Assembly: GCA_017609985.1 (NCBI GenBank)
Contig: JAFCCW010000011.1
Location: 1 to 27,852 of the forward strand
Reading direction: 5' to 3'
DNA length: 27,852 nt
Source of the DNA: Candidatus Iainarchaeum sp.
GTDB taxonomy: Archaea > Iainarchaeota > Iainarchaeia > Iainarchaeales > JAFCCW01
The position numbers and the translations under genes are program-made. The notes under the pieces are model-generated. The model was not told where the DNA came from. It did not search any database and worked only from the letters and a program-made list of their open reading frames with translations. This document shows, in pieces, positions 592 to 19,889 of this stretch (the first letter of the stretch is position 1; every line of letters begins with the position of its first letter).

Positions 592-649
592 TCAAACCGC
601 AACTATTTAATCCAAACTTATTAATATATCCTGCTGCTTTTTTTATTGC
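592..649. promoter_or_regulatory. Divergent archaeal-type promoter region (fhs / orphan at 650)
   Basis: AT-rich TTATTAATAT at 618-627, about 24 nt before ATG 650. The same tract reads as a TATA-like element on the minus strand for fhs. Confidence 0.5.
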
Positions 650-1405
650 ATGGCGTCAAGGAGAAAAAGAGTTAGAAATCTTATTGAGCATTCTCGCAAT
701 CTTCTCAGACCAAAGCATATTACTCCAAAAACAAGAGAGATGCGGGCTAAACTTAAAGCTCTTGGTCGTGAAATAACCAGTGAGCTCAGAAAACGCTCTG
801 GTTCAAGATTTGCAAGAGTTCATGTTATGGCAATCGGAAGCATTGCAAAGGGATATGCTGGCAAGTGAAGTGATTATGATATTGCAATTTGTGCCAGCGG
901 AATCAATTATGTGTCTGCAAAAGTTGCTGACCCACATGACTTCTTTTTAAAGTTGGCAAAAGAGATTGTTCAAAAGAGAATTCCTGAAATTGATTTCAAG
1001 GGAATATCTTTTGCAGATGTTGATGGGCTTGTGAAAAATATAATAACTGAGAACCAGCCGTCTGCTATTGAGACTGCTCTTGTTTTTCTTCCGTGCTTTT
1101 CAGGAATTCCTACGGCTGACAGGAAAAGGGTTTTGAACGCTATTGCAAGCACAAAAGAATCAGACACGTTTTGGAACCTGGTTTCAGTTGAGTTTTCAAG
1201 GCTTCTTGAGCAAACTGATGAAAGCAAAGAGCACACAGACAGAGTTAAGCAAAGAATTAGGGCTGCTGGTGGAAATCCAGACGAAGAGATTAAAAAATTC
1301 AACAAGACAAGGCTTGGTTCTTTTGCAGATGTTTGCAGGTTATATAATGTTAGTCCAGGCGGCCCATGTTTGGATTGTGGCAACCGAAACCAATTTATTA
1401 ATTAG
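650..1405 (+). pseudogene. Nucleotidyltransferase (Pol-beta/MNT-like) domain gene with basic N-terminus, interrupted by one in-frame TGA (866-868)
   Basis: ORFs 650-868 and 911-1405 share a frame. Reading through gives IGSIAKGYAGK*SDYDIAIC, the GS...DxD nucleotidyltransferase motif split by the stop. Confidence 0.75.
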
Positions 1406-1420
1406 CTGCTTTTCTTCTAT

Positions 1421-2032
1421 ATGAAGAAGATTAAAATCGTTGCAATGGGAAGCACTAAGGGAACTGATTTGCAGGCTGTGATTGACGCAATTGAGTCAGG
1501 TGACCTTAAAGCAGAAATAGTTGGCGTGTTTTCAAACAAGAAAGACTCTTACATTCTTGAGCGTGCCCGCAAACACAACCTGCCCGCAGAATTCCTTGAC
1601 CCCTCTGGAATTGAAAAAGAAGATTATGATGCGGGACTAATTGAAAAAATTGACAAAGCAGGAGCAGACTATATTCTTCTTATTGGCTACAACAAGATTC
1701 TTACAAAAAAGTTTGTTGATCATTTCTGGGGCAAGGCAATGAACATTCACCCTTCTCTTCTTCCTTCATTTAAGGGTTGGGATAGAAATGTTCACGAGGA
1801 AGTTATTGAATCAGGTTGCAGTGTCTCTGGTTGCACTCTGCATCTTCTCACAACCGAGATGGATTCTGGCCCAATAGTAGGACAGAAATGCGTGTGTGTT
1901 AGCCAGCGGGAAACCGCAGAGAGTCTTAAGGAAAAAGTTCAGCTAGCAGAACAAGAGCTGATTGTTGAAATATTGAAGATTCTTGAAGAAAAAAAATTAA
2001 TTGTTGATGGGAACAGGGTGTTGTTTGAATGA
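1421..2032 (+). CDS. purN: Phosphoribosylglycinamide formyltransferase
   Basis: GSTKGTDLQAVI N-terminal loop, NIHPSLLPSFKG, SGCTLH, MDSGPI. ATGA overlap with purH. Confidence 0.96.
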   Translation: MKKIKIVAMGSTKGTDLQAVIDAIESGDLKAEIVGVFSNKKDSYILERARKHNLPAEFLDPSGIEKEDYDAGLIEKIDKAGADYILLIGYNKILTKKFVDHFWGKAMNIHPSLLPSFKGWDRNVHEEVIESGCSVSGCTLHLLTTEMDSGPIVGQKCVCVSQRETAESLKEKVQLAEQELIVEILKILEEKKLIVDGNRVLFE

Positions 2033-3579
2033 CTAAGAAGCGTGCATTAATTTCAGTGTCTGACAAAAATGGTTTAGAAGAGTTTGCAAAAGCATTGCTA
2101 AAGCATGATTATGAAATTATTTCAACCGGCGGCACTGCCCGCTTTCTCAAGGAAAAAAATATGCCAGTTACTCTGGTTGAAGAGGTTACTGAGTTTCAGG
2201 AAATGCTTGACGGTCGAGTAAAGACTCTTCATCCAAAGGTTCACGCGGGAATTCTTGCATTGCGGGACTCAAAAGACCACATGAAACAGCTTGAAGGAGC
2301 AGACATTTTTCTGATTGACTTGGTTGTTGTAAATCTTTATCCGTTCAGGGAGACTGTTGACAAGAATTCAGAGAATCTTGACGAAATTATTGAAAACATT
2401 GACATTGGAGGCCCCACCCTAATTCGCTCTGCTGCAAAAAACTATCGTGATGTTGCAGTTGTTGTCAGCCCAAAGCAATATCCTAAAATGGCTGAAGAGC
2501 TTGATGGGAACAAGGGAGTTATTCCCCTAACACAGAGAAGAAAACTTGCAGCAACAGCTTTCAGGCACACTGCTGGATACGATGTTGCAATTGAAATTTT
2601 TCTTAACCGCAAATTCAATCAGAAGCAAAAGTTTCCCAAGAAACTTAATCTGTCATTTGATCTTAACCAAAAGCTTCGCTATGGGGAAAATTGGCATCAA
2701 GAAGCTGCTTTTTATTCTGACTTGTTTCCGCACGAGCCCTGCATTGCTACTGCTGAGCAGATTCAGGGAAAGGAAATGTCTTACAATAACATCAACGATA
2801 CTGATTCAGCAATAGAACTTTCAAAAGATTTTGAAGAACCCTGCGCTGTCATTGTCAAGCACGCGAACCCTTGCGGAACAGCTGTTGCAAAGGACCTGCA
2901 CACTGCTTTTGAAAAAGCTCTTGCATCTGATCCGGTTTCTGCTTTCGGCGGAATTATTTCGCTAAACGGCGAGTGCGATGCAAAAACTGCTGAAAGAATT
3001 ACTTCTTTTTTCAATGAAATTGTTGCTGCTCCCTCTTATTCAAAAGAGGCTCTTGAAATCTTTTCAAAGAAAAAGAATCTGCGCGTTCTCTTGTTAAAAT
3101 CTGTAAAGAACAGCGAGCGCGGAAAAATGGATTTCAAAAAAGTTACTGGTGGCTTGCTTTTGCAGGATAGAGACATGCACGAGCTCTCAAAAAAGGATTT
3201 GAAGTTTGTTACAAAAGAAAAGCCGTCTGCAAAACAGCTTGAAGACATGCTGTTTGGCTGGAAGATTATAAAGCACGTTAAGAGCAATGCAATCCTGCTT
3301 GTGAAAGACAAGGCAACTATTGGCGTTGGTGCAGGGCAGATGTCCCGCATTGACTCCACTGAAATCGCTGTCAAGAAAGCTGGCGAGCGCGCCAAGGAAA
3401 GTGTTCTCATTAGCGATGCATTCTTTCCTTTTCGCGACAATGTTGACCTTGCTGCAAAGTCAGGAATCACTGCAATTATTCAGCCCGGCGGAAGCGTTAA
3501 TGATGGCGAGGTCATTAGGGCAGCAGACGAGCACGGAATTACAATGGTTTTCACTGGCGTGAGGCACTTTAAGCATTGA
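2029..3579 (+). CDS. purH: Bifunctional AICAR transformylase / IMP cyclohydrolase
   Basis: RALISVSDK, STGGTA, GRVKTLHP, ENIDIGGP, LRYGEN, VKHANPCG, SDAFFPF, QPGGS, TGVRHFKH. Confidence 0.98.
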   Translation: MTKKRALISVSDKNGLEEFAKALLKHDYEIISTGGTARFLKEKNMPVTLVEEVTEFQEMLDGRVKTLHPKVHAGILALRDSKDHMKQLEGADIFLIDLVVVNLYPFRETVDKNSENLDEIIENIDIGGPTLIRSAAKNYRDVAVVVSPKQYPKMAEELDGNKGVIPLTQRRKLAATAFRHTAGYDVAIEIFLNRKFNQKQKFPKKLNLSFDLNQKLRYGENWHQEAAFYSDLFPHEPCIATAEQIQGKEMSYNNINDTDSAIELSKDFEEPCAVIVKHANPCGTAVAKDLHTAFEKALASDPVSAFGGIISLNGECDAKTAERITSFFNEIVAAPSYSKEALEIFSKKKNLRVLLLKSVKNSERGKMDFKKVTGGLLLQDRDMHELSKKDLKFVTKEKPSAKQLEDMLFGWKIIKHVKSNAILLVKDKATIGVGAGQMSRIDSTEIAVKKAGERAKESVLISDAFFPFRDNVDLAAKSGITAIIQPGGSVNDGEVIRAADEHGITMVFTGVRHFKH

Positions 3580-3584
3580 TTTTT

Positions 3585-4307
3585 ATGGTGAAGGAAAGAA
3601 GAACCTGCAATCTGGAGAAAAGAGGGTTTGCAAAAACCACTGGTGGAAGAACATCTCTTACTCAAAAAGGGCATGAATTTCTTAGAACGCTTCGTTTTGG
3701 CCGGTCAAAAAGAGTAGCGAAACGTTTTGGTTTGAATATTGACGCGGCTGAAGAATATGGGAGCTTATTTAGTGATTTTGCTCCACGCGACCTGCATTAT
3801 CGTGAAGGAATTGATTTTTAGTATCATCCTTCAAGCTATGGTTTTTTGCTTTCTTTTGTAGAGCATGCTTTTCCCTGAGAAAAACTCAAGGGCAAGAAAA
3901 TTCTTGACATAGGTTATGGGCATCCAGCACATCTTGAATATTTGGCAAGTAAAGGTGCAGAAGCCCATGGTATTGATCAGCATTTTGAATATCCTGATAG
4001 CAGTATTTCTGGGAACCTAATCAAGGATCATTTTCAAAATATCTCAAAACATTTTAAGCCAGGTTCTCTGGATATAATTATTTCAAAAGAAACTTTTGAG
4101 GAAAGAGGGGTAAGAAAAGTTGATGGATTAAAAACAGCAAGAGATATAAGGTCTCTTTTGAAGCCAGGTGGTTTCTTTGTAATGCAGGTCGCTGAAGCTC
4201 CAACTATGGCAGAAGAGCATTTAAAAAAAGCTGGATTCAAAGTAGATTATTATTCAATTCCTGCCGGCAGACAAGGTTTTTTCAATTTAATTGTTGCTCA
4301 AAGATAA
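3585..4307 (+). pseudogene. Class I SAM-dependent methyltransferase-like gene with basic N-terminus, interrupted by in-frame TAG (3819-3821) and TGA (3876-3878)
   Basis: ORFs 3576-3821 and 3942-4307 are in frame. The gap reads *YHPSSYGFLLSFVEHAFP*EKLKGKKILDIGYGHPAHLEYLASKGAEAHGID (motif I ILDIGxG), followed by GSLDIIIS and LLKPGG. Confidence 0.72.
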
Positions 4308-4865
4308 TTATTTGATAATTCTTTCCTCAGTAACTATCTTTCCAATTTTTTCATCGTTCCCGTCAACAGGGACTTTTTCTACTATCTGGCATTCAAACGC
4401 AAGAGCAACCGAAGAGCACTTCAATTGCTTCAAGAGCCAGTCATAGCATCCTGCTCCTCTGCCGAGCCTGTTCTTCTCTTCATCAAAGGCAAGTCCGGGA
4501 ACAATAACTAAATCAATTTCTTTCGGTTCTATTTCTTTGATTTCTTTCGGTTCCATTATTCCTGATTCTTTTTCTTCAAGCTCTTCAAATGATTTTATTT
4601 CTGCAAGTTCCAGCTCATAGTCTTTAAGGTCTGTCACAGGCACTGCAACCCTCTTTCCTCTTGCGAGAGCAATCTTTATTGCTTCGTGAGTTTCAACTTC
4701 TTGTCTGAAGGAAACATAGAACAGGATTGTTTCAGCTTCTTTAAACTCTGGCTGAGAAAAAAGTTCTTCAACTATTGTTTTGCTTTTCTTGGATAGCAAG
4801 CTTTTTGAAGTCTTTGAAAGTTCTTCAATTGTTTTCTTTCTCAAGCTGATTTTATCTAAACCCAT
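4308..4865 (-). CDS. 5-formyltetrahydrofolate cyclo-ligase
   Basis: K..LRK N-terminus, YVSFRQEVET, IDLVIVPGLAFD...RLGRGAGCYD, IVTEE. Confidence 0.95.
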   Translation of the reverse strand: MGLDKISLRKKTIEELSKTSKSLLSKKSKTIVEELFSQPEFKEAETILFYVSFRQEVETHEAIKIALARGKRVAVPVTDLKDYELELAEIKSFEELEEKESGIMEPKEIKEIEPKEIDLVIVPGLAFDEEKNRLGRGAGCYDWLLKQLKCSSVALAFECQIVEKVPVDGNDEKIGKIVTEERIIK

Positions 4866-5646
4866 GCACTTTTCCCCATCTTGTCATTCTCTTTTTAAGT
4901 TTTTCAAACTCGCTTTTTTCAAGAACTTGTTTCTGTTCTTCAAGGAATTCAGTTATTGGAATCATTCTCTCTATTTCAAGTGCTTCAGCCATTGCAACAT
5001 GCATTAAAAGATTGGTTGGTTTCTCTGCTTTTTCTCTGACATATTTCCTTAGTTTTTCCCAGTCAATATCTGAGAATTCAAAATAAATTGGCAGTCCAAC
5101 ACCCCTCTTTTTTTCTGTTTTAGTAAGAGGTCTTTCTTCAGGATGCTCTTTCTGCCATCTTTCTTCATCAATTGGTCTTGTTCCAACATTAAGTGGGTTG
5201 CTATTTGGAGTTATTCCTGCCTTCAAAATTTCAGGATAATTAAATCTATTTAACTGGTCTGGACCCATTGAACGCTCTCTTTTTCTGTAAGTTTTATGGC
5301 CTCTGGCTGAAGGCAAATATTCATTTTGATAAGCATCCTGAACCATTGTCTGAAAAGCTGGGTGAGTTTCAGCATATCTGGAGTAAAGTTCTTTTTTTTG
5401 TCCTTCTCTTGCTCCTGTTGCTTTGACAAAATAGCCTGGGAAAAGTATGTTCAGAGTTCTTAGGAGGTGATACATTGCTTTTTGGTTTTTAACTGGATTA
5501 TCTTTATGGCTTCTCCAGTGAACTCTTGCTACTTCTCCTGAGAAACCAAATTTTCTTCCTGGCGGGGCTCTGTAAACATCTGCTTCCTCTGCTCTGACCC
5601 ATGGTTTTTTTCCATGTCTTCTTTTAAGTGCAGGATTTTTATGCAT
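4852..5646 (-). CDS. Hypothetical protein with basic N-terminus, possibly a degenerate kinase-like fold
   Basis: 264-aa ORF filling the gap between purM and the cyclo-ligase. It starts MHKNPALKRRHGKKP. GFSGEV, GITPNSNPLNVG and PIYFE loosely echo kinase motifs (weak). Confidence 0.7.
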   Translation of the reverse strand: MHKNPALKRRHGKKPWVRAEEADVYRAPPGRKFGFSGEVARVHWRSHKDNPVKNQKAMYHLLRTLNILFPGYFVKATGAREGQKKELYSRYAETHPAFQTMVQDAYQNEYLPSARGHKTYRKRERSMGPDQLNRFNYPEILKAGITPNSNPLNVGTRPIDEERWQKEHPEERPLTKTEKKRGVGLPIYFEFSDIDWEKLRKYVREKAEKPTNLLMHVAMAEALEIERMIPITEFLEEQKQVLEKSEFEKLKKRMTRWGKVHGFR

Positions 5647-5677
5647 GTAAAAATAAGTGTTGCTGACTTAAAAAAGA

Positions 5678-6718
5678 TTACTTTATGTCCACACCGCAGC
5701 CTTTTGCAATTGAACCAATCTCGGTAAACTTTTGCTTGTTCTTTTCAAGGATTTGCACTGCTTTTGCTCTTTCGTTGACTGGAATCACTATAACCAGTCC
5801 AATTCCCATATTAAAGGTTCTCCACATATCCTGCTCGTCCACGTTTCCCTTTTCCTGAATGAATTTGAAGACAGGCAGAACATCAATCTCGTTCTTGTTG
5901 ATTACTGCGCAGGTTCCCTTTGGAAGAATTCTCGGGATATTCTCTACAAGCCCTCCGCCAGTGATGTGTGCCATTCCCCTTATTTCAATCTCTTTATCAA
6001 GCAGTTTCTTCACGATGTTCACATAACTCTTGTGTGGTTTTAATAGTTCTTCTCCAACAGAACAAGCAAGTTCTTCTACATAATCTTCTGTGTTTAGTCC
6101 GGCAACCTCAAAGAAAACCTTCCTTGCAAGAGAGTATCCATTAGTGTGAAGACCATCCGATGCGAGCCCGAGAATAACATCCCCTTCTTTTATTTTTGAA
6201 CCATCTATCACATCTTCTGCATCTACCAACCCATATATTGCGCCTGCTAAATCTGTTTCTCCTTTTTCATATACTCCAGGCATTTCTGCTGTCTCGCCGG
6301 CTATCAATGCAATTCCTGCTTCCCTGCAGGCTTCTGAAATTCCTTTCACAATCTGTTCAATCTGCTCCGGCTCTATCTTGTCACTTGCAATATAGTCCAT
6401 GAACGCAACAGGGAAAGCGCCCTGCACAAGTATGTCGTTTGATGAATGATTTACAATATCTTTTCCAACAGAATCCCACTTGTTTGCCATTGAGGCAACC
6501 TTCATTTTTGTTCCCACTCCGTCAATACTGCATACTAAAGCAGGCTTTTTCATTTTTTTTGCTTTTTCAAGAGAAATCATCCCTCCAAATTTTCCAACAT
6601 CCAATAGAACATCCTTGGTGAACGTACTCTTTACATGTTTCTTGATTCTCTTCACTGACTCGTTTCCTGCATCAATGCTTACTCCAGCATCTTTGTAAGT
6701 GAGTTTTTTCTTAGTCAT
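5678..6718 (-). CDS. purM: Phosphoribosylformylglycinamidine cyclo-ligase (AIR synthetase)
   Basis: TYKDAGVSIDAGN, DGVGTK, GETAEMPG, SDGLHTNGYSLARK, HITGGG, TFNMGIG. Start is ATG 6718 or GTG 6721, overlapping the purD stop. Confidence 0.97.
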   Translation of the reverse strand: MTKKKLTYKDAGVSIDAGNESVKRIKKHVKSTFTKDVLLDVGKFGGMISLEKAKKMKKPALVCSIDGVGTKMKVASMANKWDSVGKDIVNHSSNDILVQGAFPVAFMDYIASDKIEPEQIEQIVKGISEACREAGIALIAGETAEMPGVYEKGETDLAGAIYGLVDAEDVIDGSKIKEGDVILGLASDGLHTNGYSLARKVFFEVAGLNTEDYVEELACSVGEELLKPHKSYVNIVKKLLDKEIEIRGMAHITGGGLVENIPRILPKGTCAVINKNEIDVLPVFKFIQEKGNVDEQDMWRTFNMGIGLVIVIPVNERAKAVQILEKNKQKFTEIGSIAKGCGVDIK

Positions 6719-8004
6719 CACAATCCCCCTGTTGGGACTTCGCCCCTGTCCAAAGCTTTTTTTCCAATATCTTTTCTGTAATGCATTTTTTCAAACTTAA
6801 CTTTTTCAACTAAATCATAAGCTTTTTCAATGCTTTCTTTAATGCTTTCTCCAAGCCCCACGCAGCCAAGAACGCGTCCGCCATTTGTGAAAATTTTTCC
6901 GTTCTCCAGTTTTGTTCCTGCGTGAATAACTAGCTGTCCTTCTCCTTTTTCTCCTATTGAAATTTCTTTTCCTTTTTCATAGCTTTCCGGATACCCCCCG
7001 CTTGCAAGAACAACACAAGTGCAGGCCTTATTGCTCCACTTAATTTTCTGGTTTTTTAGAGAACCGTTCATGCAAGCCTCCAGTATTTCAATAAGGTCTG
7101 ACTCCAGTCTTGGAATAACTGCTTGTGCTTCCGGGTCACCAAATCTTGCATTGAATTCTATAACTCTTGCTTTTCCGTTCTTAATAATTAAGCCTCCGTA
7201 AAGAAATCCCCTGAATTCTTTTTCCTCTTCCTTCATTGCTCTGATGGTAGGAATCATTATTTCTTCCTTTATCTGCTTTTCAAGTTCTTTTGTTACAACC
7301 GGTGCTGGAGAATAAGCTCCCATTCCCCCTGTGTTTGGTCCCTTGCCTTCATCAAAAACTGGCTTGTGGTCCTGACTTGAAACCATTGGCAGAATACTTT
7401 CTCCGTCTGTAAATACAAGATAGCTTGCTTCCTCTCCCTCAAGCTTTTCTTCCAGAACAATTTTTGCTCCTGCTTCTCCAAACTTATTATCTTCCATAAT
7501 CTCTTCAATTGCCTTGACTGCTTCTTCCTCTGTTTCAGCTACTGTAACTCCCTTGCCAGCTGCTAAACCATCTGCCTTGACAACAATTGGAGCTCCTTTT
7601 TCCTTAACATATTCCTTTGCTTTCTCTGCATCAGTAAAGACAGCATACTCTGCACTTGGAATTTTATATTTTTTGAGAAGGTCTCTTGTGAATGATTTGC
7701 TTCCCTCTATTTCTGCTGCTGCCTTGCTTGGTCCAAAACATCTTAATCCTTTCTTTGAAAATTCGTCAACTATTCCTGCCACAAGCGGTGCTTCTGGTCC
7801 GACAATAGTTAATTCAATTTTTTCTTTTCCTGCAAAATCAGCCAACGCATTTATGTCTTCTGCGTCAATATCAATGTTTTCTCCAACTTCCGCTGTTCCT
7901 GCATTTCCCGGTGCAATAAAAATCTTGTCAACTTTCTTACTCTGTTTTATTTTCCAGGCAAGCACGTGTTCTCTGCCACCTGAACCAATAATCAAAACTT
8001 TCAT
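6718..8004 (-). CDS. purD: Phosphoribosylamine--glycine ligase
   Basis: MKVLIIGSGGREH start at 8004 (ATGA overlap with purF stop), KADGLAAGKGV, QDHK, GPNTGGMGAYSP, EFNARFGDPE. Confidence 0.97.
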   Translation of the reverse strand: MKVLIIGSGGREHVLAWKIKQSKKVDKIFIAPGNAGTAEVGENIDIDAEDINALADFAGKEKIELTIVGPEAPLVAGIVDEFSKKGLRCFGPSKAAAEIEGSKSFTRDLLKKYKIPSAEYAVFTDAEKAKEYVKEKGAPIVVKADGLAAGKGVTVAETEEEAVKAIEEIMEDNKFGEAGAKIVLEEKLEGEEASYLVFTDGESILPMVSSQDHKPVFDEGKGPNTGGMGAYSPAPVVTKELEKQIKEEIMIPTIRAMKEEEKEFRGFLYGGLIIKNGKARVIEFNARFGDPEAQAVIPRLESDLIEILEACMNGSLKNQKIKWSNKACTCVVLASGGYPESYEKGKEISIGEKGEGQLVIHAGTKLENGKIFTNGGRVLGCVGLGESIKESIEKAYDLVEKVKFEKMHYRKDIGKKALDRGEVPTGGL

Positions 8005-9593
8005 TTCTTTCCCCTGCATGAATTTCCTGCGGTTCCGCATGCTTGGTATGTTCTCCCGCTGGGTGTCTTGCCCATGTTTTCTTTGGAATGTTCTGCAAGA
8101 AGTTTTCCGCAAGGAGTGGGATATTCTCCGTTAATGCAAGCCATGCACATTTCATTTTTTGGCAAACCAATTGCTTTCACAAGACCCTTGAGTGACTGAT
8201 ATCTGAGGGAATCAACTCCTATTTCTTTTGCAATTTTTTCAATAACTTTTTTATCAATGTCTTCAAGCCCTCTTTCCCCGAGCTCGTTTTTGTTAACATA
8301 TTTTGGAGCAATAAGCTCGTCCATTGTGCTCATATCAATTCCATAAAAGCAAGGGCTTACAATTGGAGGACAGCTTACACGCATGTGAACCTCTTTTGCT
8401 CCTCCTGCTTTTCTCACATAGTCTATAAGAACCTTGGAGGTTGTTCCACGCACAATACTGTCTTCAACAAGAATTACTTTTTTGCCTTTGAGAATTGCAC
8501 GGTTTACTGAATATTTGTCTTTTACTTTTTGAGATCTTTCGCCGTCTTCAATAAATGTTCTTCCAACATATCTGTTTCTCATTAAACCTTCCATTGACCT
8601 GACGCCAATTTCGTGAGCATAACCATCTGCAGCAGGCTTTGAAGTGTCTGGCACTGCAACAACAATATATTCTCCGTTTTTTATGTTCAGGTCTTCTTCT
8701 TTTCCAAGTTGTTTTCCAAGATTCCATCTTGCCTCGTAAACATTCACTCCATCAAATGTTGAAGCAGGGTTTGCAAAGTAAACATATTCAAACATGCAGA
8801 TTGCTTTCTGCTTTGCCTTGGCAAATCTTTTCTTTTCAACACTGTTTCCGTTAACAATAAGCATTTCCCCTGGCTGAACATCGTGTCTTTTTCCTTCAAG
8901 CGCATTCAGTCCCACACTCTCGCTTGCTGCTGCAATCATTTCATCATTTTCAAGATAAACAAGTGGTTTGAATCCCACAGGGTCTCTCATTATTGCAAGC
9001 TCGTCCATTGCATTCATGTAAACAAGGCTGTAGGCACCGTCAAAATTTTCAGTAGCATTTGAAAAAATTTCTCCGATGTCTTTTGGCTTTGGACCGTTTA
9101 GCTCTTTGGAGAGAGAATGCATTATGACTTCAGTGTCAAGGTCTCTTACAAGATGGTATCCATTTCCTTCAATGTCTTTTTTTAAGTCAACAAAGTTTGC
9201 AAGATTTCCATTGAATGCAAGAGAAAACCATTTCCATTTTCTTCCATGATATCTTTCAAAAGGCTGTGCTGCGCCAGTATCATTGCTTCCGGAAGTAGCA
9301 TATCTGATGTGTCCTATTCCTTTTTTTCCAGAGAATTTTTCAAGAATTCCTTTGTATTTTGGTTCTATTCTAAACCAGAAAGCCTCGTTAACAGAACCAA
9401 GCTTTTTGTAAGTGTCAATCATTTCTTGTCTGTTGGGATCAAAGGTGGAGATTCCTGCTGAGAGCTGTCCCCTGTGCTGCTGGTGCAATAGCATCTTGAC
9501 AAGATAGTGTGCTGCCTTGCCTTCGGGATAATTTTTCAGGGGTTTCTTAAGAGAAACAGCTGCGACTCCGCATTCTTCATGGATTTCGTCCAT
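8001..9593 (-). CDS. purF: Amidophosphoribosyltransferase (propeptide, Fe-S type)
   Basis: MDEIHEE-CG propeptide and catalytic Cys, QHRGQ, GHIRYATSG, PRPP motif VEDSIVRGTT, Cys ligands CMFEYVYF, PCFYGID and CMAC. Confidence 0.97.
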   Translation of the reverse strand: MDEIHEECGVAAVSLKKPLKNYPEGKAAHYLVKMLLHQQHRGQLSAGISTFDPNRQEMIDTYKKLGSVNEAFWFRIEPKYKGILEKFSGKKGIGHIRYATSGSNDTGAAQPFERYHGRKWKWFSLAFNGNLANFVDLKKDIEGNGYHLVRDLDTEVIMHSLSKELNGPKPKDIGEIFSNATENFDGAYSLVYMNAMDELAIMRDPVGFKPLVYLENDEMIAAASESVGLNALEGKRHDVQPGEMLIVNGNSVEKKRFAKAKQKAICMFEYVYFANPASTFDGVNVYEARWNLGKQLGKEEDLNIKNGEYIVVAVPDTSKPAADGYAHEIGVRSMEGLMRNRYVGRTFIEDGERSQKVKDKYSVNRAILKGKKVILVEDSIVRGTTSKVLIDYVRKAGGAKEVHMRVSCPPIVSPCFYGIDMSTMDELIAPKYVNKNELGERGLEDIDKKVIEKIAKEIGVDSLRYQSLKGLVKAIGLPKNEMCMACINGEYPTPCGKLLAEHSKENMGKTPSGRTYQACGTAGNSCRGKK

Positions 9594-9716
9594 TGCTCCC
9601 ACATAATGTTAAGAGCTAATAGAGTTTTTAAGTGTTTGCCTGTCGTGTTTGATTAACTGCTTCTTTATCCTCAACCCTTAAAAACATTTTCTCATTTCTC
9701 TTAGCTGTGGGAGCAG
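9594..9716. promoter_or_regulatory. Symmetric divergent promoter of purF and purL
   Basis: AAC(A/C)CTTAAAAAC on each strand (9624-9636 minus; 9673-9685 plus), 30-31 nt before each ATG. TGTGGGAGCA immediately precedes both starts (9594-9603 minus; 9706-9715 plus). Confidence 0.65.
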
Positions 9717-12689: not shown

Positions 12690-12693
12690 TTTG

Positions 12694-13533
12694 GTGACAA
12701 AAGGAAAAGCAATTGTGCTCTATGGTTATGGAATAAATTGCGATTACGAGACACAGTTTGCTTTGAGCAATGCTGGTTTTGAAGCAGAGCGCGTTCATGT
12801 AAATGATGTGGTTGCAGGCAAGAAAAAACTTGAAGACTTTCACTTGCTTGCTTTTCCAGGCGGTTTTTCTTATGGGGACGATCTTGGCTCAGGCAAGGCA
12901 ATGGCTAACAAGATTCAGACATCTCGCATTGGTTCTGACACTTTTGAAGCTCACCTGAAAAAGTTCATTGCTGAAGAAAAATTAGTGATTGGAATCTGTA
13001 ATGGTTTTCAGATGCTCGTAAAACTTGGCTTAGTTCCTGCATTGGAAGGAAAATATTTTGAACAACAGTCAACTCTGACATTTAATGAGTCTGGAAGATT
13101 TGAGGACAGATGGATTTATCTGAAGGGAAACAAGGAAAGCCCGTGTGTTTTTACAAAGGGAATTGAAAAAATAGAGCTTCCTGTAAGACATGGTGAAGGA
13201 AAATTTATTCCTGCTAATCCAAAAATTCTCGAAGAAATCAAATCCAAGAACATAGTTGTTTTTCAGTATGCTGACCCTGACTTTAATGTAACTGAAGAGT
13301 ATCCTCTTTGCCCAAACGGAAGCACTGATTCAATTGCTGGTTTGTGCGATGAAACAGGCAGGGTTTTTGGAATGATGCCTCATCCTGAAGCACACTTGTT
13401 TTTTGAAAACCATCCGCGATGGACTCGCAAAAAGGAATGTCTCTTGCGCGAAGGAAAAGAAATTCCAAAAGAGGGACAGGGCTCTCCCTTGTTCAGAAAC
13501 GCATTTAATTATGTTAAGTCAAAACTTCTCTGA
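12694..13533 (+). CDS. purQ: Phosphoribosylformylglycinamidine synthase glutaminase subunit
   Basis: GINCDYET, PGGFSYGD, GICNGFQML (catalytic Cys), HGEG, GMMPHPE. Likely start GTG 12694 (or TTG 12691) after GGTGA. Confidence 0.95.
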   Translation: MTKGKAIVLYGYGINCDYETQFALSNAGFEAERVHVNDVVAGKKKLEDFHLLAFPGGFSYGDDLGSGKAMANKIQTSRIGSDTFEAHLKKFIAEEKLVIGICNGFQMLVKLGLVPALEGKYFEQQSTLTFNESGRFEDRWIYLKGNKESPCVFTKGIEKIELPVRHGEGKFIPANPKILEEIKSKNIVVFQYADPDFNVTEEYPLCPNGSTDSIAGLCDETGRVFGMMPHPEAHLFFENHPRWTRKKECLLREGKEIPKEGQGSPLFRNAFNYVKSKLL

Positions 13534-13955
13534 TTGTTTCCTGTTCTTCCCATTCCTTGTGATTCAATAATTTCTATTTCCCATAGGATAAGAGCGTCAA
13601 TTTCTCTGTCAGAAAGAGTTCTAACTTCCCCTAGCTTGAGGTCAAATCTTCTTTTTGGGTCATCAAGATCAATATTGTTTGATTTAAAATAGTCAAGTTC
13701 AGTTTTTCTTCTGTGAAAATAGTTATGTTTCCATTTTTGGTCTGTTAATCCTTTTCTGGCTTCAATCCCGGCGACTCTTTTTGCAATCTCTGTTGCTTTT
13801 TCTTCGTCAATTTTGCCCCATCTTTTATTTATCTTTTTCAGGAACCATTTTGCTGAATCTGCTGCCTGAACAGTCTGATGTTTTCTTCTTTCAACAAGAG
13901 ATTCATTTACTTTCAGATTTAGTCTGAGCTGAGCTGGTTTTTTTCTTGGCAACAC
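13509..13955 (-). CDS. Hypothetical basic protein
   Basis: 148-aa ORF starting (M)LPRKKPAQLRL, preceded by TATAAATA at 13978-13985 (minus). Its 3' end overlaps purQ convergently by 25 nt. Confidence 0.65.
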   Translation of the reverse strand: MLPRKKPAQLRLNLKVNESLVERRKHQTVQAADSAKWFLKKINKRWGKIDEEKATEIAKRVAGIEARKGLTDQKWKHNYFHRRKTELDYFKSNNIDLDDPKRRFDLKLGEVRTLSDREIDALILWEIEIIESQGMGRTGNNQRSFDLT

Positions 13956-14060
13956 AGAATAAATCAGTTCAGACTAGTATTTATAGGCTTGCTTTAGATG
14001 ATTAAGGTTAGAAGAAGAATAAAATTAATGGGAATAAAATAAGAAAATAATTGAGGTCTT

Positions 14061-14510
14061 TTACTTGACCTCTAGCCTCTTGCTGTTGTTTTTCTTTTCT
14101 ATATTTTTTTTGTCTAGGTTTATTTCAAGAATCCCATTTTTAAGTTCTGCTTCTGCGCTTTCGCTTTTGATTTCTGTTGGCAGTGGAATTGTTCTGCTAA
14201 AAGATTGTACTGATCTCTCCGAATAATATATTCCTTTTTCTGCGTCTTTTTCTTCCATTCCAGTTTTGCTTTCTGCTGAAATGCTTATGCTGTTTTCTCC
14301 GAGCACCAAGTCAATGTCTTTCTTGTTTATTCCGGGCATTTCTGCAATAATCTTTATTTTCTTTCCATCGTCTCTGATGTCAATAAGCGGTTCTCGGTTG
14401 TGAATTTCACTTCCTTTTTTCAAATCAAATTCTTGGCCTGGAACGCCCCAGAAACCCATCATTCTTTTCTGCATTTTTTTCATTTGTTCAAAAGGATCAA
14501 AATAGTCCAT
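14061..14510 (-). CDS. Small heat shock protein (Hsp20/alpha-crystallin family)
   Basis: PLIDI..IIAEMPGINKKDI, ERSVQSFSRTIPLP, AELKNGILEI. AGGAGG ribosome-binding site upstream. Confidence 0.95.
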   Translation of the reverse strand: MDYFDPFEQMKKMQKRMMGFWGVPGQEFDLKKGSEIHNREPLIDIRDDGKKIKIIAEMPGINKKDIDLVLGENSISISAESKTGMEEKDAEKGIYYSERSVQSFSRTIPLPTEIKSESAEAELKNGILEINLDKKNIEKKNNSKRLEVK

Positions 14511-14553
14511 TTCAAAACCTCCTGTTGTTTAAACTATTTAATCAATTATATTA

Positions 14554-15693
14554 TTATTTAATCATCTTATTTTTAAATCTTTCCCCATAATCCGGCATGT
14601 ATTTTGGCTCAATCAGATGAGTTATTTCAGGGAGGAGATCTGCTTCCTTTACTGAAACACGTCCAAGATACAGATTTTTTATGTTTCCTCCTTTTTCCAG
14701 GTACTTGATTACCTCATTCCTGCCCTTTAAATAAATAATGTCTTTCGTGAAAGCTCCTTTTTCCTCTGTTCTTGCAAGACCTCGCTTTGCTCGCTGAACA
14801 AGCATGTATGAATCTTCGTCATTAAAATGTTCTCTGAGAATTTCAAAGCTTTCATAAAATGAATTTTTCATGGAATAGTACACTGCTACAACTCTTCCTG
14901 CATATTTTCTAAGAGTTGAGGTTGTCAAGACTCCAAAAAGTTCTTCATTGAATACTGCTAAACCCTCGTCTGTTCTCTGCCAGCCCTCTCCAACACCGGT
15001 TCCAAAAATTTTGAACGGCTGAGAATAACCGTTTTCGTAACGGTACAAGTGAGTTTCTATTTCATGAAATTTTAATCTCATTATTTCTGTGCTGGAAAAC
15101 ATTGCATCACTTCTGATTCTAATCTGTTTTAGTCCCGGAACAATCACAGCATCACTCACCAGCTTGTCGTCAGTGAAAACTTTCCAGTTAAATCCGTTTT
15201 CCTTTAAGTGAAACTGCAGAAAATATCTTGCGCCGTTTGCTGAAACATCTTTTTTTTCGTCTCTTGGAACAATTTCAAGAATTTGCTCTGCACTCTTCAA
15301 AAGGATTGAATCAATGCTTCCGTAATATGAAATAGAGTTCTCAGTAAACTGTTCCGCGTTTCCAATCGACTGAAGTAGTTTTATCTTGCTCTTAAGCAGA
15401 GTTTTTCTTTTCTCGAAAAGTTTTCCAATAGCTGAATCATCTGTGTCAATCGAATCAAGAGTCTTTATACAGTTTTCATAATCTGGATTAATCTTTAGAT
15501 ATTTCATAATCGGGTTTCTTGGAAGAAATTCATAAACAGGATTGTGTTTTTCTCCTTTTTCAAGAGCTCTAAAGAACTTTTTCTTTTCAGACAGGCAGTT
15601 CTGTGGATTAACATGCTTGACAATACTGACATCAAGCAAAGAAGCAATTTCGAAAAGTTCTGTGTCTGTTTTTGCAAGCTCTTTTAAATTCAT
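14554..15693 (-). CDS. DUF1704 / MATCAP-like (tyrosine/phenylalanine carboxypeptidase family) zinc metallopeptidase
   Basis: HExxxH (FHEIETHLYR), TDEGLA, YAGRVVAV, RAKRG and FTKDIIYLKG, the motifs of the QEGLA/DUF1704 family. Confidence 0.85.
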   Translation of the reverse strand: MNLKELAKTDTELFEIASLLDVSIVKHVNPQNCLSEKKKFFRALEKGEKHNPVYEFLPRNPIMKYLKINPDYENCIKTLDSIDTDDSAIGKLFEKRKTLLKSKIKLLQSIGNAEQFTENSISYYGSIDSILLKSAEQILEIVPRDEKKDVSANGARYFLQFHLKENGFNWKVFTDDKLVSDAVIVPGLKQIRIRSDAMFSSTEIMRLKFHEIETHLYRYENGYSQPFKIFGTGVGEGWQRTDEGLAVFNEELFGVLTTSTLRKYAGRVVAVYYSMKNSFYESFEILREHFNDEDSYMLVQRAKRGLARTEEKGAFTKDIIYLKGRNEVIKYLEKGGNIKNLYLGRVSVKEADLLPEITHLIEPKYMPDYGERFKNKMIK

Positions 15694-15731
15694 ACAATAT
15701 TATGAATGCATTATAGTTTTTAGGGCTTTCA

Positions 15732-15929
15732 CTATTCTGAGTAAAATTCATCATATCCGTTTTCGAGATCAACTTCTTTTGCTGGCTTTACTGAAAGCCG
15801 TCCTGTGGCTGACAAAACAACAACCAGTTCCAGATTGCACTCTGGGCAGGCAAGATAGTCGCCGTCATCGTATTCATCCAATTCAATTGAAAAAGTTTCT
15901 TCGCATTCAGGACATTTTATTTTCTTCAA
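15732..15929 (-). CDS. LysW-like small acidic zinc-ribbon protein
   Basis: CPEC...CPECNLELVVV, very acidic, C-terminal Glu (ENGYDEFYSE). GGAGGGTGG ribosome-binding site before a TTG start. Confidence 0.8.
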   Translation of the reverse strand: MKKIKCPECEETFSIELDEYDDGDYLACPECNLELVVVLSATGRLSVKPAKEVDLENGYDEFYSE

Positions 15930-15996
15930 TCAAACCACCCTCCAAATCTTTTTTAGTTCCCATTATTTATTTAAATCTAACCAATAACCTTTGATT

Positions 15997-16755
15997 ATGG
16001 ATTTAGCGCAGGCAATTGTTTTAGGGCTTCTTCAGGGTGTTTTTGAATGGCTTCCGGTTTCATCTCAGGGACAGGTAATGGGTTTGGGAATTTCCTTTCT
16101 TGGATTAACAGTTGAGTCAGCAAAAAATTACAGCATTTTTCTTCACATTGGAACCCTGTTTGCGGCAATAGTTTTTTTCAGAAAAGAGATAAAGCGAATT
16201 ATTTCAAGCAGGGATGTTCCCTTGGCAAAGTTTTTGGGAATAGCAGTTCTTGCAACAGCTATTACTGCCATTCCATCCTATCTTTTGCTTAATGCATTTT
16301 CTTTGCTTGGAATTCCGGCACTGCTTTTTTTTATTGGAATTTTTCTTTTAATCACTGGCTATTTGCAGGGAAGAAAACAGAGTCAGAAAAAACCAGGCCT
16401 TTCAAACAAGAATGCATTCTTTCTTGGTCTTGGACAGGGATTTTCTGTTCTGCCTGGAGTTTCAAGAAGCGGAACCACTGTCAGTGTTTTGCTTTTTGAA
16501 GGATTTTCTCCAAAAGAAGCCTTTCGCCTGAGTTTTCTTCTAAGCATTCCTTCAGTGCTTGTTGCAGAACTTGCGTTTTCAATTTTTGACCCTATTTCAA
16601 TTGGACTCAATGAAATAGTTGCTGTTGTTTCAGCTTTTGTTTTTGGTCTTGTTTCAATTTCCGTTCTTTTAAAACTAGCTGAACAGATTTCTTTTTCAAA
16701 ATTCTGCTATGCATTTGCATTGCTTTATTTTGGAATAGCTTTTTTAGCTCTCTGA
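15997..16755 (+). CDS. uppP: Undecaprenyl-diphosphate phosphatase (BacA/UppP family)
   Basis: LGLLQGVFEWLPVSSQG, LHIGTL, LPGVSRSGTT, SFLLSIP and multiple hydrophobic helices. Confidence 0.9.
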   Translation: MDLAQAIVLGLLQGVFEWLPVSSQGQVMGLGISFLGLTVESAKNYSIFLHIGTLFAAIVFFRKEIKRIISSRDVPLAKFLGIAVLATAITAIPSYLLLNAFSLLGIPALLFFIGIFLLITGYLQGRKQSQKKPGLSNKNAFFLGLGQGFSVLPGVSRSGTTVSVLLFEGFSPKEAFRLSFLLSIPSVLVAELAFSIFDPISIGLNEIVAVVSAFVFGLVSISVLLKLAEQISFSKFCYAFALLYFGIAFLAL

Positions 16756-16767
16756 TTGATGGAAAGC

Positions 16768-17394
16768 TCACAAAATAAAAACAGTAATGTGAATAACTGT
16801 CACAAGCAGCCAGCTGAACAGATTTTTCAAAATACTTCCCTGAACAAGCTCTGCGACAAGGGAATAAAGAAGATATTCTCTCCAGACCAGTAAAACAAGA
16901 CCTGCAAGGACGCCGATTCCCGCAATCACGATTTCAAAACTTCCAATGTCTTCCTTTAGCATGTCAAAAGCAATTCCATAATCTGAAACAGAGTTTGTTG
17001 ACTTTGCTGTTGCCACTGCATTCAAAGAAGCAGGGCTAAAAATTGCAAATATTACAATTGAAAGCACAAGTGCATTAATTGCTACAACAATCCATCTCAA
17101 AGAAATTGCTGAAAGAATTCCATTAAATTTTCCATCCGTATTCTTTCCCGCAAAAAGATATGCTACGAGATAAACAACTACTCCCAAAAACACTAGCTTT
17201 GCAAATTCTCTGAATACGAGAAATGCAATCAGTCCAAGATCCAATTCTATTCCCAGAAGAACATTTCTTGAAATAACATATACGATAAGAAAAGCAGCTA
17301 CTAATCCTGCTGAAATCGCAAGATTTGGGTTTTCCAGAGAATCTCTTACAGCATTTCCTGGCTTGAGAATATTCAAGTTCATTTTAATCGGCAA
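16768..17394 (-). CDS. Multi-pass membrane protein, Yip1-like
   Basis: About five hydrophobic segments and an N-terminal 'ILKP' pattern typical of Yip1-like proteins. Alternative start ATG 17382. Confidence 0.6.
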   Translation of the reverse strand: MPIKMNLNILKPGNAVRDSLENPNLAISAGLVAAFLIVYVISRNVLLGIELDLGLIAFLVFREFAKLVFLGVVVYLVAYLFAGKNTDGKFNGILSAISLRWIVVAINALVLSIVIFAIFSPASLNAVATAKSTNSVSDYGIAFDMLKEDIGSFEIVIAGIGVLAGLVLLVWREYLLYSLVAELVQGSILKNLFSWLLVTVIHITVFIL

Positions 17395-17466
17395 TATATT
17401 GTTTTAATTATTATATAAAGATTTGTTTTTCAGGATTTTAGATTTATATCTTTTTGAACAGATTTG

Positions 17467-17919
17467 TTATTGTTCGGTTATTGTAACCTGAACTCTTTTG
17501 CTTACATCAAATCCCTTTGGCACATCAAGAACTGCTTCAACATACCATTTAGTCATGCTGGGCCCTCCGATGAGTGCGCTCCCTATATTCATTGCCATTC
17601 CAAGAGTTTCGTTTTCTGGTTTTGCACCTATAAGATTTTTAGGGATGCTGATTTCAAAATCATATTCTTCGTTTAAATATTCTTTTTCTATGTCCAAATC
17701 CTGTTCAAATTCGTAAACTCTTTCAGTGCTGCTTGTTCTTCTTCCGTCCGAAATGCTCCTATGTGAAACAGTTCTTTCCCCAAAGAAAACAAGCTTCAGC
17801 CGTCTTGCACTTACTGGTTTTTTAAGCTTGAGGATTGTTCTGCCTTTTATTTTTTCGCCCGAAACAAAACTATTTTTTTCAAGGTTAACTAATATTTTTC
17901 CCTTTAAGAATCCAAACAT
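17467..17919 (-). CDS. Arrestin-N / SpoOM-like beta-sandwich protein
   Basis: FVSGEKIKG..ILKLKKPVSARRLKLVFFGER, YDFEISIP, WYVEAVLDVP. GGAGG ribosome-binding site. Confidence 0.6.
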   Translation of the reverse strand: MFGFLKGKILVNLEKNSFVSGEKIKGRTILKLKKPVSARRLKLVFFGERTVSHRSISDGRRTSSTERVYEFEQDLDIEKEYLNEEYDFEISIPKNLIGAKPENETLGMAMNIGSALIGGPSMTKWYVEAVLDVPKGFDVSKRVQVTITEQ

Positions 17920-17975
17920 GAAATCGCCTCCAAAGATTAAATAAAAAAATAAAGGCTTTCTGATATAAAAATCTT

Positions 17976-19049
17976 TTACCTGGTTATTTTGAAGCTTTGA
18001 ACCTGTTTTAGCAGGTCTGCAGCTTTCTTGTTTTTTTCAAAATGTTTTCTCACTGGTTCCAGCAATTCATTCACGCTGTTGGCTACACTGGTTTTAAGGT
18101 CTGCCGGGTGAAGATTTCCATTAACAAAGTCTACTTCAAGATCGTTGTAGGAGTTGTACTCAATATTTCCGCCAAATTTTTCTGGTCTCTCTATTTTCAG
18201 AGAATCAAATTTTTCAAAAACAATATATTTTGCATATTCAAGAACAGGGTTTTCTTCTGCAATCTTTTCCGGACAGAATGCTTTTGAAATTTTTCTCTGC
18301 ACATCCTTTGCAGAGTCAGTCATGAATATCGCAGAATCTGGTCTGCTTTTGCTCATTTTCATTTCAATCTTTCTGTCAATTCCCTCTGCACTAGTTTTTG
18401 GCTGTTCCAACCCCATAAGCATGTGGTGGTGTACTGCAACTGGCTTCCAGTAACCAAGTTTTTCTCCGAGTTCTCTGGCAAGCATGTTAACCTTTCTCTG
18501 GTCCATTCCAAGCTGGGGAATATCTACTTCGAGATGAAATATATCTGCTGTCTGCATGCAGGGATACAAAATCTGTGCAGCACTTAACCCATCTTTTTCT
18601 CCTCTGCCCATTATCTGAGAGCATCTGATAATTCTGTTAACCGTGCTTCCGGTAGCAACTGACATAACCTTTTTCCAGTAATTTTCGTCCTGAACTGCCT
18701 CGTTTGCCCAGACAAATTCCACTTTGTCCAAGTCCATCCCTGCAACTTTCCAAACTTCAATCAAATACTTTCCAGCAGTCTGAATGTCTTCAAGATTCCC
18801 ACTAAGTTTGTTGTTTGCCCAGGCATGCCAGTCTGCCACAAGCATCCTGAACTTGCAGCCCGCCTTTGCCATCTTGTTTACATTTATTGCTCGCATTATT
18901 CCCTGGGCAATATGAATGTTTCCGCTTGGTTCAAACCCATCGTAAGCTATTGGTTGTTTCTTCTTTTCCAGCAAAGCCTTCAAGTCTTCTTGAGTAATAA
19001 TTTCTTCGCCGACTTCTTCAATCAGGCTAATGCGCTCTTCAAGTTTCAT
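17976..19049 (-). CDS. tyrS: Tyrosine--tRNA ligase, archaeal/eukaryotic type
   Basis: AYDGFEPSGNIHIAQG (HIGH-like), YPCMQTAD, GMDQRK, KMSKS, LHPADLK. Confidence 0.97.
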   Translation of the reverse strand: MKLEERISLIEEVGEEIITQEDLKALLEKKKQPIAYDGFEPSGNIHIAQGIMRAINVNKMAKAGCKFRMLVADWHAWANNKLSGNLEDIQTAGKYLIEVWKVAGMDLDKVEFVWANEAVQDENYWKKVMSVATGSTVNRIIRCSQIMGRGEKDGLSAAQILYPCMQTADIFHLEVDIPQLGMDQRKVNMLARELGEKLGYWKPVAVHHHMLMGLEQPKTSAEGIDRKIEMKMSKSRPDSAIFMTDSAKDVQRKISKAFCPEKIAEENPVLEYAKYIVFEKFDSLKIERPEKFGGNIEYNSYNDLEVDFVNGNLHPADLKTSVANSVNELLEPVRKHFEKNKKAADLLKQVQSFKITR

Positions 19050-19092
19050 GCAAACCAATTAATATAAATTACAAAACTATTTATAGGTTTAT

Positions 19093-19488
19093 ATGCCTAA
19101 AAAAGTGCTTGCTTTTGGAACATTTGATGTTCTGCATCCAGGACACGAGTTTTTTCTTGAAAAAGCAAGTTGTCTTGGTGATTCTCTCACAGTAATTGTT
19201 GCACGCGATTCCAATGTAAAGCAAATAAAAGGAAAGCCAGCTGTGCAAAACGAACACGAGAGATTGAATTCTGTTAAAGAAGTTTCCTTTGTGAACAATG
19301 CTCTTCTCGGAGAAGAACCTCTTTCCTACAAGATTGTTGAAAAGCAAAGACCAGCAGTAATTGCTCTTGGATACGACCAGCAGGCAGACACAGGGAAACT
19401 TGAAAAAACAGGAGCAGAGATTGTTCGCATTCCTGCTTTCAAACCAAGCAAGTTCAAGTCATCAATCTTAAATACCAGGAAAGACTAA
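19093..19488 (+). CDS. ribL: FAD synthase (archaeal RibL, cytidylyltransferase family)
   Basis: FGTFDVLHPGH, VIVARD, IALGYDQ, KSS. The close family could alternatively be a glycerol-3-phosphate cytidylyltransferase. Confidence 0.8.
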   Translation: MPKKVLAFGTFDVLHPGHEFFLEKASCLGDSLTVIVARDSNVKQIKGKPAVQNEHERLNSVKEVSFVNNALLGEEPLSYKIVEKQRPAVIALGYDQQADTGKLEKTGAEIVRIPAFKPSKFKSSILNTRKD

Positions 19489-19496
19489 TTTTATGT

Positions 19497-19889
19497 ATGG
19501 CGCGCAGACCTAGTGAAAGAAGAAGCAAAACAGTTACTCAAAGACACAGTGTTCAAAAACCAGTTGCTCACACGCCAGTTAATCCTGAGGCAATAATTCC
19601 CGGCGGGCTTGGAAGATTTTCTGCTTCCGAGCGGGCAAGAGCATCAGGGCAGGACCCAAGAAATAAGCGTGAGCCAAAAGCTCAAAGAACAAAAGACGAG
19701 TTAAGAGACAGGGAACAGGGTTTGCTTGTAAGAGTTGCTCAACAACAAGGCTTATCAAGACACTCCATAGAAAAGATGCTAAATTATATTTCGCACCATA
19801 AAAAACACACAAGAAACGTGAGGCAGGCGCTTGAAGAAGGAGCTGTTCCCCAACTGGGAAGACTTATTCATTTAGTTCTGCTGAAATGA
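19497..19889 (+). CDS. Hypothetical highly basic protein
   Basis: 130-aa ORF starting MARRPSERRSK, with TTAAATA at 19468-19474 about 22 nt upstream. No recognisable domain. Confidence 0.6.
   Translation: MARRPSERRSKTVTQRHSVQKPVAHTPVNPEAIIPGGLGRFSASERARASGQDPRNKREPKAQRTKDELRDREQGLLVRVAQQQGLSRHSIEKMLNYISHHKKHTRNVRQALEEGAVPQLGRLIHLVLLK

Follow-up and report, generated by a model that had tools for sequence, protein, structure and literature searches.

A class of otherwise unrelated orphan proteins with cationic, proline-rich N-terminal tips in Iainarchaeales, and its extension to sigma-70 factors

Genomes of DPANN archaea have been described as carrying sigma-70 genes (fam00359) and murein transglycosylases, with the role of the sigma factors unclear and bacterial hosts raised as a possibility (Castelle et al. 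2021, PMC8204110); potential bacterial hosts are also mentioned in a preprint (10.1101/2025.11.11.687807). Secretion signals that are positively charged or defined by composition have been reviewed (PMC10025392), and N-terminal loading peptides are covered in PMC9054023. Here we analyse a 27,852-nucleotide (nt) stretch of DNA, referred to as the window, which is the whole of contig C21 of a Candidatus Iainarchaeum sp. genome, G000 (Iainarchaeota (Diapherotrites), order Iainarchaeales; 1.16 Mb, 37 contigs, 86.6% complete), and most of which is made up of a purine cluster. Basic, low-complexity N-terminal arms are found in ribosomal, histone-like and other nucleic-acid-binding proteins. The window holds five orphan genes that begin with basic segments, and these appear to be current or decaying members, one of them doubtful, of a wider repertoire. 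In Iainarchaeales, about 3% of genes encode unrelated, soluble, Cys-poor, polycationic proteins whose tip of 10–15 residues is rich in Arg, Lys and Pro, poor in Asp and Glu and without a fixed motif; most have a leaderless promoter of their own. A tip of this kind is also carried by sigma-70 factors of the order. A literature search, with subscription journals and supplements outside its scope, turned up neither a paper on basic-tipped orphans of DPANN archaea nor one linking them to sigma factors.

The five genes, referred to below by their start positions, and their promoter-like elements (BRE, transcription factor B recognition element) are as follows.

614..629 (approximate), + strand: BRE/TATA-like element, roughly 20 nt upstream of ATG 650; score 5.7
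650..1405, + strand: class gene 1, basic tip and pol-beta-type nucleotidyltransferase; in-frame TGA at 866-868, leaving pieces 650-868 and 911-1405
3585..4307, + strand: broken class I S-adenosylmethionine (SAM) methyltransferase with a basic start; TAG at 3819-3821, TGA at 3876-3878; no promoter of its own
4852..5646, - strand: class gene 3, intact orphan of 264 amino acids (aa), between purM and 5-formyl-tetrahydrofolate cyclo-ligase
5667..5684 (approximate), - strand: BRE/TATA-like element, roughly 20 nt upstream of ATG 5646 and overlapping with the stop codon of purM; score 3.6
13509..13955, - strand: class gene 4, intact orphan of 148 aa, flanked by purQ and a small heat-shock-like gene
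13978..13995 (approximate), - strand: BRE/TATA-like element, roughly 22 nt upstream of GTG 13955; score 6.2
19461..19476 (approximate), + strand: TATA-like element, roughly 22 nt upstream of ATG 19497, within the end of the upstream gene; score 3.6
19497..19889, + strand: class gene 5, intact Arg-rich 130-aa orphan, after a cytidylyltransferase-like gene

All five basic N-termini described in the initial annotation are present where it had placed them, the one at 13955 beginning GTG-TTG, that is, MLPRKKP. The tip charge, defined as the net charge of residues 2–16, is +5 for 650, +3 for 3585, +6 for 5646, +5 for 13955 and +5 for 19497; these values are reached by 3.8%, 16.8%, 2.0%, 3.8% and 3.8%, respectively, of 559 known soluble proteins, so that the charge of the 3585 tip is unremarkable. 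The five were said to lack a Sec/Tat hydrophobic core, and the best 13-residue Kyte–Doolittle mean within the first 45 aa indeed lies between -0.37 and 0.79 across them. Likewise, the four TATA-like boxes without a ribosome-binding site were recovered with a BRE/TATA matrix whose training set was known genes and in which a match is a score of at least 3 at leaderless spacing; 3585, whose start lies 5 nt past the purH stop, scores only 1.5, and a Shine–Dalgarno match of at least 4 bases is found at none of the five. Each of the five uses the earliest ATG or GTG available in its frame.

Two of the five, 650 and 3585, are split by nonsense codons, as had been noted. Read through with X at the stop, 650-1405 matches Pfam Polbeta (E 5.6e-5, below the curated cut-off) and NTP_transf_2 (E 0.001), its GS..D.D motif straddling the stop. 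Among 1.84e9 representatives its only homologs are its own pieces; a weak paralog at G000:C17:1477-2142 (E 1.5e-4) is basic-tipped too, and a second contig holds a 164-aa piece with the start of 650, one residue different. Read through in the same way, 3585-4307 matches Pfam Methyltransf_23 (E 7.9e-8, above cut-off) with motif I present, and its homolog P0016 (84% identity over residues 88–240) is open across the second stop. A recoded genome in which the stops are Trp codons was ruled out: the position of the second 3585 stop is occupied by Gly in P0016, which marks the stops in the window as ordinary nonsense codons, and purH ends in TGA. Residues 10–37 of 3585 weakly match the winged helix PF14947 (E 0.034); its start may be the remnant of a winged-helix domain rather than a leader, and its membership of the class is doubtful.

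The other three genes are intact. The one close homolog of 5646, P0002, is 73% identical and has the same start; its tip differs from that of 5646 at 7 of 16 positions and is equally basic. This shared start and the promoter spacing place the true starts upstream of the basic segments, not past them. A distant homolog of 5646 was found in 1 of 200 related genomes, and no family hit in Pfam, NCBIfam or PHROGs. The nucleotidyltransferase and methyltransferase folds initially proposed as cargo are borne out by 650 and 3585; the kinase fold proposed for 5646 rests on a motif order that is suggestive by eye in a three-row alignment, has no Pfam, PDB or hhalign support and does not rise above shuffled controls in profile comparison. 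AlphaFold models of 5646 (predicted local distance difference test about 40) are too poor for use, and atlas hits were all <0.9. Neither 13955 nor 19497 has a significant hit in Pfam, NCBIfam or PHROGs, and the gene calls of the sampled genomes contain no homolog of 13955; the body of 19497 is 13% Arg. Sister loci of the window genes were sought in metagenomes and none was found.

Genome-wide counts and starts all rest on gene calls made with a custom caller (dicodon model and upstream matrices), which may miss or shorten Arg-rich genes, a bias that therefore runs against the effect described here. In G000, 1220 genes were called, of which 905 lie within the window or fetched regions and 854 are 5'-complete and at least 70 aa long. 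The 388 without a BLAST match in the sampled relatives (none from the genus or family of G000) were compared with Pfam over at most their first 420 residues (E<=1e-5), and the 188 without a hit were taken as orphans, 106 of them soluble and 82 membrane proteins. A tip charge of at least +4 occurs in 31 of the 106 soluble orphans and 45 of the 559 known soluble proteins (odds ratio 4.7, p 2e-8), an enrichment above chance; membrane orphans do not show it (2/82). At least three Arg within residues 2–21 are found in 37/106 soluble orphans and 39/559 known proteins (p 5e-13). Over these residues Arg makes up 9.9% in soluble orphans versus 4.2–4.8%, Pro 5.6% versus 3.0–3.2% and Lys 11.7% versus 12.9–13.6%, and Pro occupies position 2 in 17/106 versus 22/559 (p 2e-5). 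The leaders had been described as Arg/Lys-rich; the excess is one of Arg and Pro, with Lys not raised, which also rules out a Lys-rich proteome as the cause of the tips.

In roughly one half of the soluble orphans the body, too, is Arg-rich. When the class is defined by body Arg alone (at least 7%, at least 90 aa, n=47), the N-terminus still exceeds the body in charge by +1.24 (p 0.003) and in Pro by 4.5 percentage points (p 5e-4), compared with a charge difference of +0.32 (p 0.28) in 51 equally Arg-rich known proteins and no significant N-terminal excess in the 44 other soluble orphans. Cys is depleted in the class (0.34 versus 1.19%). Recent import from a high-GC source was ruled out by native codon use (four-fold-site GC 0.236 versus 0.242). 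A promoter match stands at the start of 22/35 class genes, compared with 4% of positions inside open reading frames (ORFs) and 0/20 next downstream ATGs, a test that is partly circular, as start choice used upstream signals, except for the five window genes. The placement of such genes singly among core genes, to which attention had been drawn, is not special (19/32 class genes versus 56/124 other orphans, p=0.17).

These compositions bear on an account in which the tips are by-products of fast evolution, with dispensable genes drifting and gaining upstream starts in A-rich DNA that would read as Lys and Arg. The two broken window genes, the near absence of homologs and a small basic bias at both ends of known proteins (+0.43 N-terminal, +0.60 C-terminal) agree with it. 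We consider it unlikely: the tips are rich in Pro (CCN codons) although the upstream DNA is C-poor, Lys is not raised, the remaining half of the soluble orphans lack the bias, and the class is present in genomes of 36–54% GC. Moreover, the starts lie at promoter spacing, P0002 holds both start and charge despite its changed tip sequence, and the composition of the class (Cys 0.3%, Glu 9%, AGA as 66% of Arg codons) is unlike that of translated random DNA.

The class extends across the order. By a fixed rule, 36/1083 genes are class-like in eight Iainarchaeales genomes compared with 2/722 in four outgroup archaea (an Anstonellales genome, a Hadarchaeota genome and two genomes that share the order of a Woesearchaeota record), each sampled over 40–200 kb; the share per genome ranges from 0/146 (G002) to 13/186 (G029), and at least one of the 36, ribosomal L35Ae, is false. 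The N-terminal excess over the body is +1.27 in Iainarchaeales (p 3e-4, n=58) and -0.43 in the four outgroups (p 0.16, n=31), p-values that overstate significance because kin genomes are not independent. A C-terminal excess is seen in Iainarchaeales and outgroups alike; class C-termini are basic, as are those of outgroup and known proteins. Loci around purH (30 Iainarchaeales and 79 other, those without a script-recognised purH ORF being dropped) gave class-like genes in 7/57 flanking ORFs at 6/29 Iainarchaeales loci, all mutually unrelated, and in 2/115 flanking ORFs at 58 other loci. The class turns over fast: purH neighbours differ between genomes, and some genes are broken.

Recognised cargo comprises SAM methyltransferases, nucleotidyltransferases, one kinase, HEAT repeats, proteins with multiple helix-turn-helix (HTH) domains, two proteases (one zincin-like, one Rce1-like) and sigma-70; a Pfam hit at E<=0.003 is lacking in 58 of 81 class and candidate proteins. 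One further member, L232:3397-3777 (G000:C18), weakly matches DUF7002 (E 8e-4), and its start looks ADP-ribosyltransferase-like by eye. The scattered, lineage-restricted distribution of the genes and a few excisionase/MerR-like HTH matches in PHROGs would suit remnants of viruses or mobile elements, or the cargo of an internal compartment or vesicle, with the tip as a packaging arm; packaging arms of viral proteins are basic. Such an origin is improbable, and more so than drift: PHROGs gave no hit for 74/79 class proteins and only weak HTH or methyltransferase matches for the other five, codon use is host-like as given above, the promoters are of host type, and no sheath gene was found in G000.

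The class includes a sigma-70-like protein, L035:1051-2262 of the single-contig genome G016, with Pfam regions 2 and 4 and matches to RpoS/SigA chains. A set of sigma factors was picked by PF04542 alone, independently of the N-terminus, and read from the first ATG. PF04542 matches occur in 31/121 Iainarchaeales genomes and 0/4 archaeal controls; 30 loci were returned, and dropping L259 (no ATG start) and L280 (cut by a stop) left 28. A tip charge of at least +4 is carried by 19 of these 28, compared with 94/1022 conserved Iainarchaeales proteins read by the same first-ATG rule and 2/35 other sigma-70s, one of the two grouping with Iainarchaeales L258; the 35 controls, taken from a protein database, are mostly unnamed and presumed bacterial. 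Uncertainty in the sigma starts runs both ways, the first ATG of L262 being doubtful, L253 having a basic GTG-started extension and L267 bearing its tip on an upstream fragment, and an in-frame TTG start of the dropped L259 reads basic and Pro-rich. The N-terminus exceeds the body in charge by +3.2, compared with -0.8 in controls (p 5e-7), with no difference at the C-terminus (p 0.7); the bodies of these sigmas are basic too. An archaeal promoter match stands at 11/28 sigma starts versus 1.8% of positions inside ORFs. Phage sigma controls were sought in viral contigs and none was obtained.

The tipped sigmas include RpoD/RpoS-like, FliA-like and extracytoplasmic function (ECF)-like types and fall in several tree positions, in a tree whose deep nodes are weakly supported and from which seven short or divergent rows were excluded; in one ECF family, tips that defy alignment are nonetheless basic. 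NCBIfam sigma hits (E<=1e-4) were obtained for 26/28, and some lack region 4. In region 2.2, the Asp is kept in 22/27 and the Gln in 19/27 Iainarchaeales sigmas, residues that we take to bind core polymerase. Sigma-like genes often stand in tandem or beside a related neighbour (L254, L255, L279, L204, L262), and some are truncated or split (L255, L267, L280), which indicates fast turnover here as well. Sigma-70 is also present in 22/51 genomes of the Woesearchaeota order.

Sigma-70 needs the bacterial core RNA polymerase (RNAP). The C-terminal domain (CTD) of bacterial RNAP alpha was matched in 6/121 genomes, by weak or contaminant-like hits (beta and beta-prime were outside the search); the sole strong alpha-CTD hit falls on an rpoA fragment of bacterial appearance at the end of a contig (L282, G133:C3), which, with the dnaA gene on a 1.3-kb contig (L283, G118:C15), is probably assembly contamination. 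DnaA, considered as a second bacteria-only cargo, was uninformative, its hits being generic AAA matches apart from the bacterial-looking one on that contig. A lytic transglycosylase (SLT) was found in 39/121 Iainarchaeales genomes and 0/4 archaeal controls. Family f3 has neither sigma-70 nor SLT (0/11 genomes), and its sample G002 is without class candidates.

A single process that reads the tip is the simplest account of these results, because several sigma types, methyltransferases, nucleotidyltransferases and proteins of no recognised family all carry an unalignable, cationic, Pro-rich tip. The tip would then be a sorting signal of composition type that a single export route reads; the class proteins would act in another cell. 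A bacterial recipient is the likeliest, because sigma-70 needs a bacterial core RNAP, of which these genomes give no sign; the recipient would be a bacterial host or prey cell, with the cargo modifying its transcription and macromolecules. That the tip is such a signal for delivery into a bacterial partner is a serious possibility, somewhat short of an even chance, judged from sequence. All three links in this chain are inferred: that the tip is a signal, that the signal serves export and that the export leads into a bacterium. Less probable is the fuller picture, in which Iainarchaeota would be parasites or predators of bacteria that deliver a large set of fast-evolving proteins into the bacterial cytoplasm by a hitherto unrecognised cationic N-terminal signal, among them captured sigmas that might redirect bacterial RNAP. 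The shared sorting leader suggested in the initial annotation thus gains from the sigma-70 result, which points to a bacterial rather than an archaeal recipient, and loses from the lack of a motif and the basic character of whole proteins and C-termini. The observation itself is real and wider than the five genes; the sorting-signal idea is plausible, with one independent line of support, and unproven.

Several results weigh against delivery. Over many tests, no k-mer motif in 73 tips goes beyond a z of about 3, and the tips show no amphipathic excess. Class proteins are basic throughout (median +7 versus +0.7 per 100 residues, partly from the class definition), and in G000 their C-termini exceed the body as much as their N-termini do (+1.84 versus +1.76); to these the non-independence of the cross-genome comparisons is added. 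Neither sigma-70 (PF04542) nor SLT was found in G000, and the 31 sigma-70 and 39 SLT genomes overlap in only 4/121. Region 2.2 is eroded in part, the Glu being kept in 6/27 and the Gly in 4/27 Iainarchaeales sigmas versus 23/34 and 23/34 controls. Many recognisable cargos bind nucleic acids, where basic arms are common, and Iainarchaeum is possibly free-living (Dombrowski et al. 2019, PMC6349945). In the 87%-complete G000, no match was found to TatC (PF00902), to P-loop TraG or TraG-D_C (PF12696, PF19044) or to a contractile tail sheath (PF04984).

A search for a secretion or pilus system accompanying the class had been proposed at the outset as a check: beside these missing Tat, TraG/VirD4 and sheath genes, G000 has four type IV pilus/type II secretion system (T2SS)-type ATPase systems and three DUF87/HerA-type ATPases, one of them HerA-like by NCBIfam. 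As a matter of speculation, the pilus/T2SS-type systems and the large HerA/DUF87-type ATPases are candidate conduits. Two large DUF87/HerA-type ATPases, G000:C27:15202-17286 and G000:C23:96135-99233, are common to several relatives and are possible transfer machinery; the former starts within an intein and adjoins multi-pass membrane genes.

Nucleic-acid binding inside the archaeon is the strongest rival to delivery, and a possible one, although on balance we doubt it. Tips and bodies would be non-specific DNA- or RNA-binding arms serving nucleoid packing, ribosome or tRNA modification, or regulation, and the sigmas would be repurposed DNA-binding regulators. The basic character of whole proteins and of both ends, the HTH, sigma, methyltransferase and nucleotidyltransferase domains of the cargo, the partial erosion of region 2.2 and the lack of an export machine in searches of G000 all suit it. 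The known nucleic-acid-binding proteins of G000 are, however, mostly tipless (3/41 tipped, mean net +0.3; hand-picked from Pfam results, ribosomal proteins excluded), other sigma-70s bind DNA without a tip (2/35 tipped), and Pro at position 2, Cys depletion, tips on HEAT-repeat and protease-like proteins and fast gain and loss are left unexplained. Drift and a mobile or compartment origin fit less well than this rival. Two small, acid-free proteins (L226:4410-4706 and L235:17469-17777), 43–47% Lys, have a histone H1-like composition.

Other genes of the window include, on the - strand, 14554-15693 (379 aa), which has a strong match to MATCAP of the tyrosine carboxypeptidase family (Pfam E 5.8e-51) and lies near RimK-type ligases; 15732-15929, a 65-aa acidic protein with CxxC motifs, presumably LysW-like, with a similar one in L203; and 17467-17919 (150 aa), with an arrestin N-terminal-like domain (Pfam E 3e-7). 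At 20384-22762 an aspartyl/zinc-protease-like gene is divergent from two ATP-grasp/RimK-like genes (the RimK label being by eye), the second of which, at 21758, is conserved and has a Lys-type basic N-terminus (net +6). On the + strand, 26334-27653 combines a nucleoside phosphorylase domain with about 240 residues without assignment and a basic tail at the end.

Two questions stand open for DPANN archaea: the role of their bacterial-type sigmas, and whether some of their hosts are bacterial (PMC8204110). These questions are linked by a tip that sigmas have in common with some 3% of genes that are otherwise unrelated; the tip makes them testable and supplies a rule for listing candidate effectors. 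If export is true, it would be a protein delivery route from archaeon to bacterium without a described counterpart in the literature searched; if it is wrong, an order-wide class of polycationic orphans stays real and unexplained. The sigmas described here resemble those of PMC8204110 in being bacterial-type sigma-70 genes in DPANN genomes; the main text of that study contains neither 'arginine' nor 'effector', whereas here the sigmas are tied by their tip to a wider class of orphans.

Among described signals, those of type IV secretion systems (T4SS), such as the Arg motif of Agrobacterium VirB/D4 and the positive tail of Bartonella, share with the Iainarchaeales tips a positive, poorly conserved terminus on unrelated effectors, but are C-terminal and served by a VirD4-type coupling protein, whereas the tips are N-terminal and G000 gave no TraG/VirD4 match (PMC10025392). 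Type III secretion system signals are likewise short, variable in sequence, N-terminal and set by composition, but mainly polar and uncharged, in contrast to these strongly cationic, archaeal tips (PMC10025392). Extracellular contractile injection systems (eCIS), including the Photorhabdus virulence cassette (PVC), use an N-terminal peptide to load unrelated cargo for injection, but need a tail-like particle and the Pvc15 ATPase, and G000 is without a sheath gene (PMC9054023). Like the arms of nucleic-acid-binding proteins, the tips are basic, low-complexity N-termini; unlike those arms, which in G000 are conserved and mostly of Lys type, the tips of the class are of Arg/Pro type, are not conserved and are found on enzymes as well.

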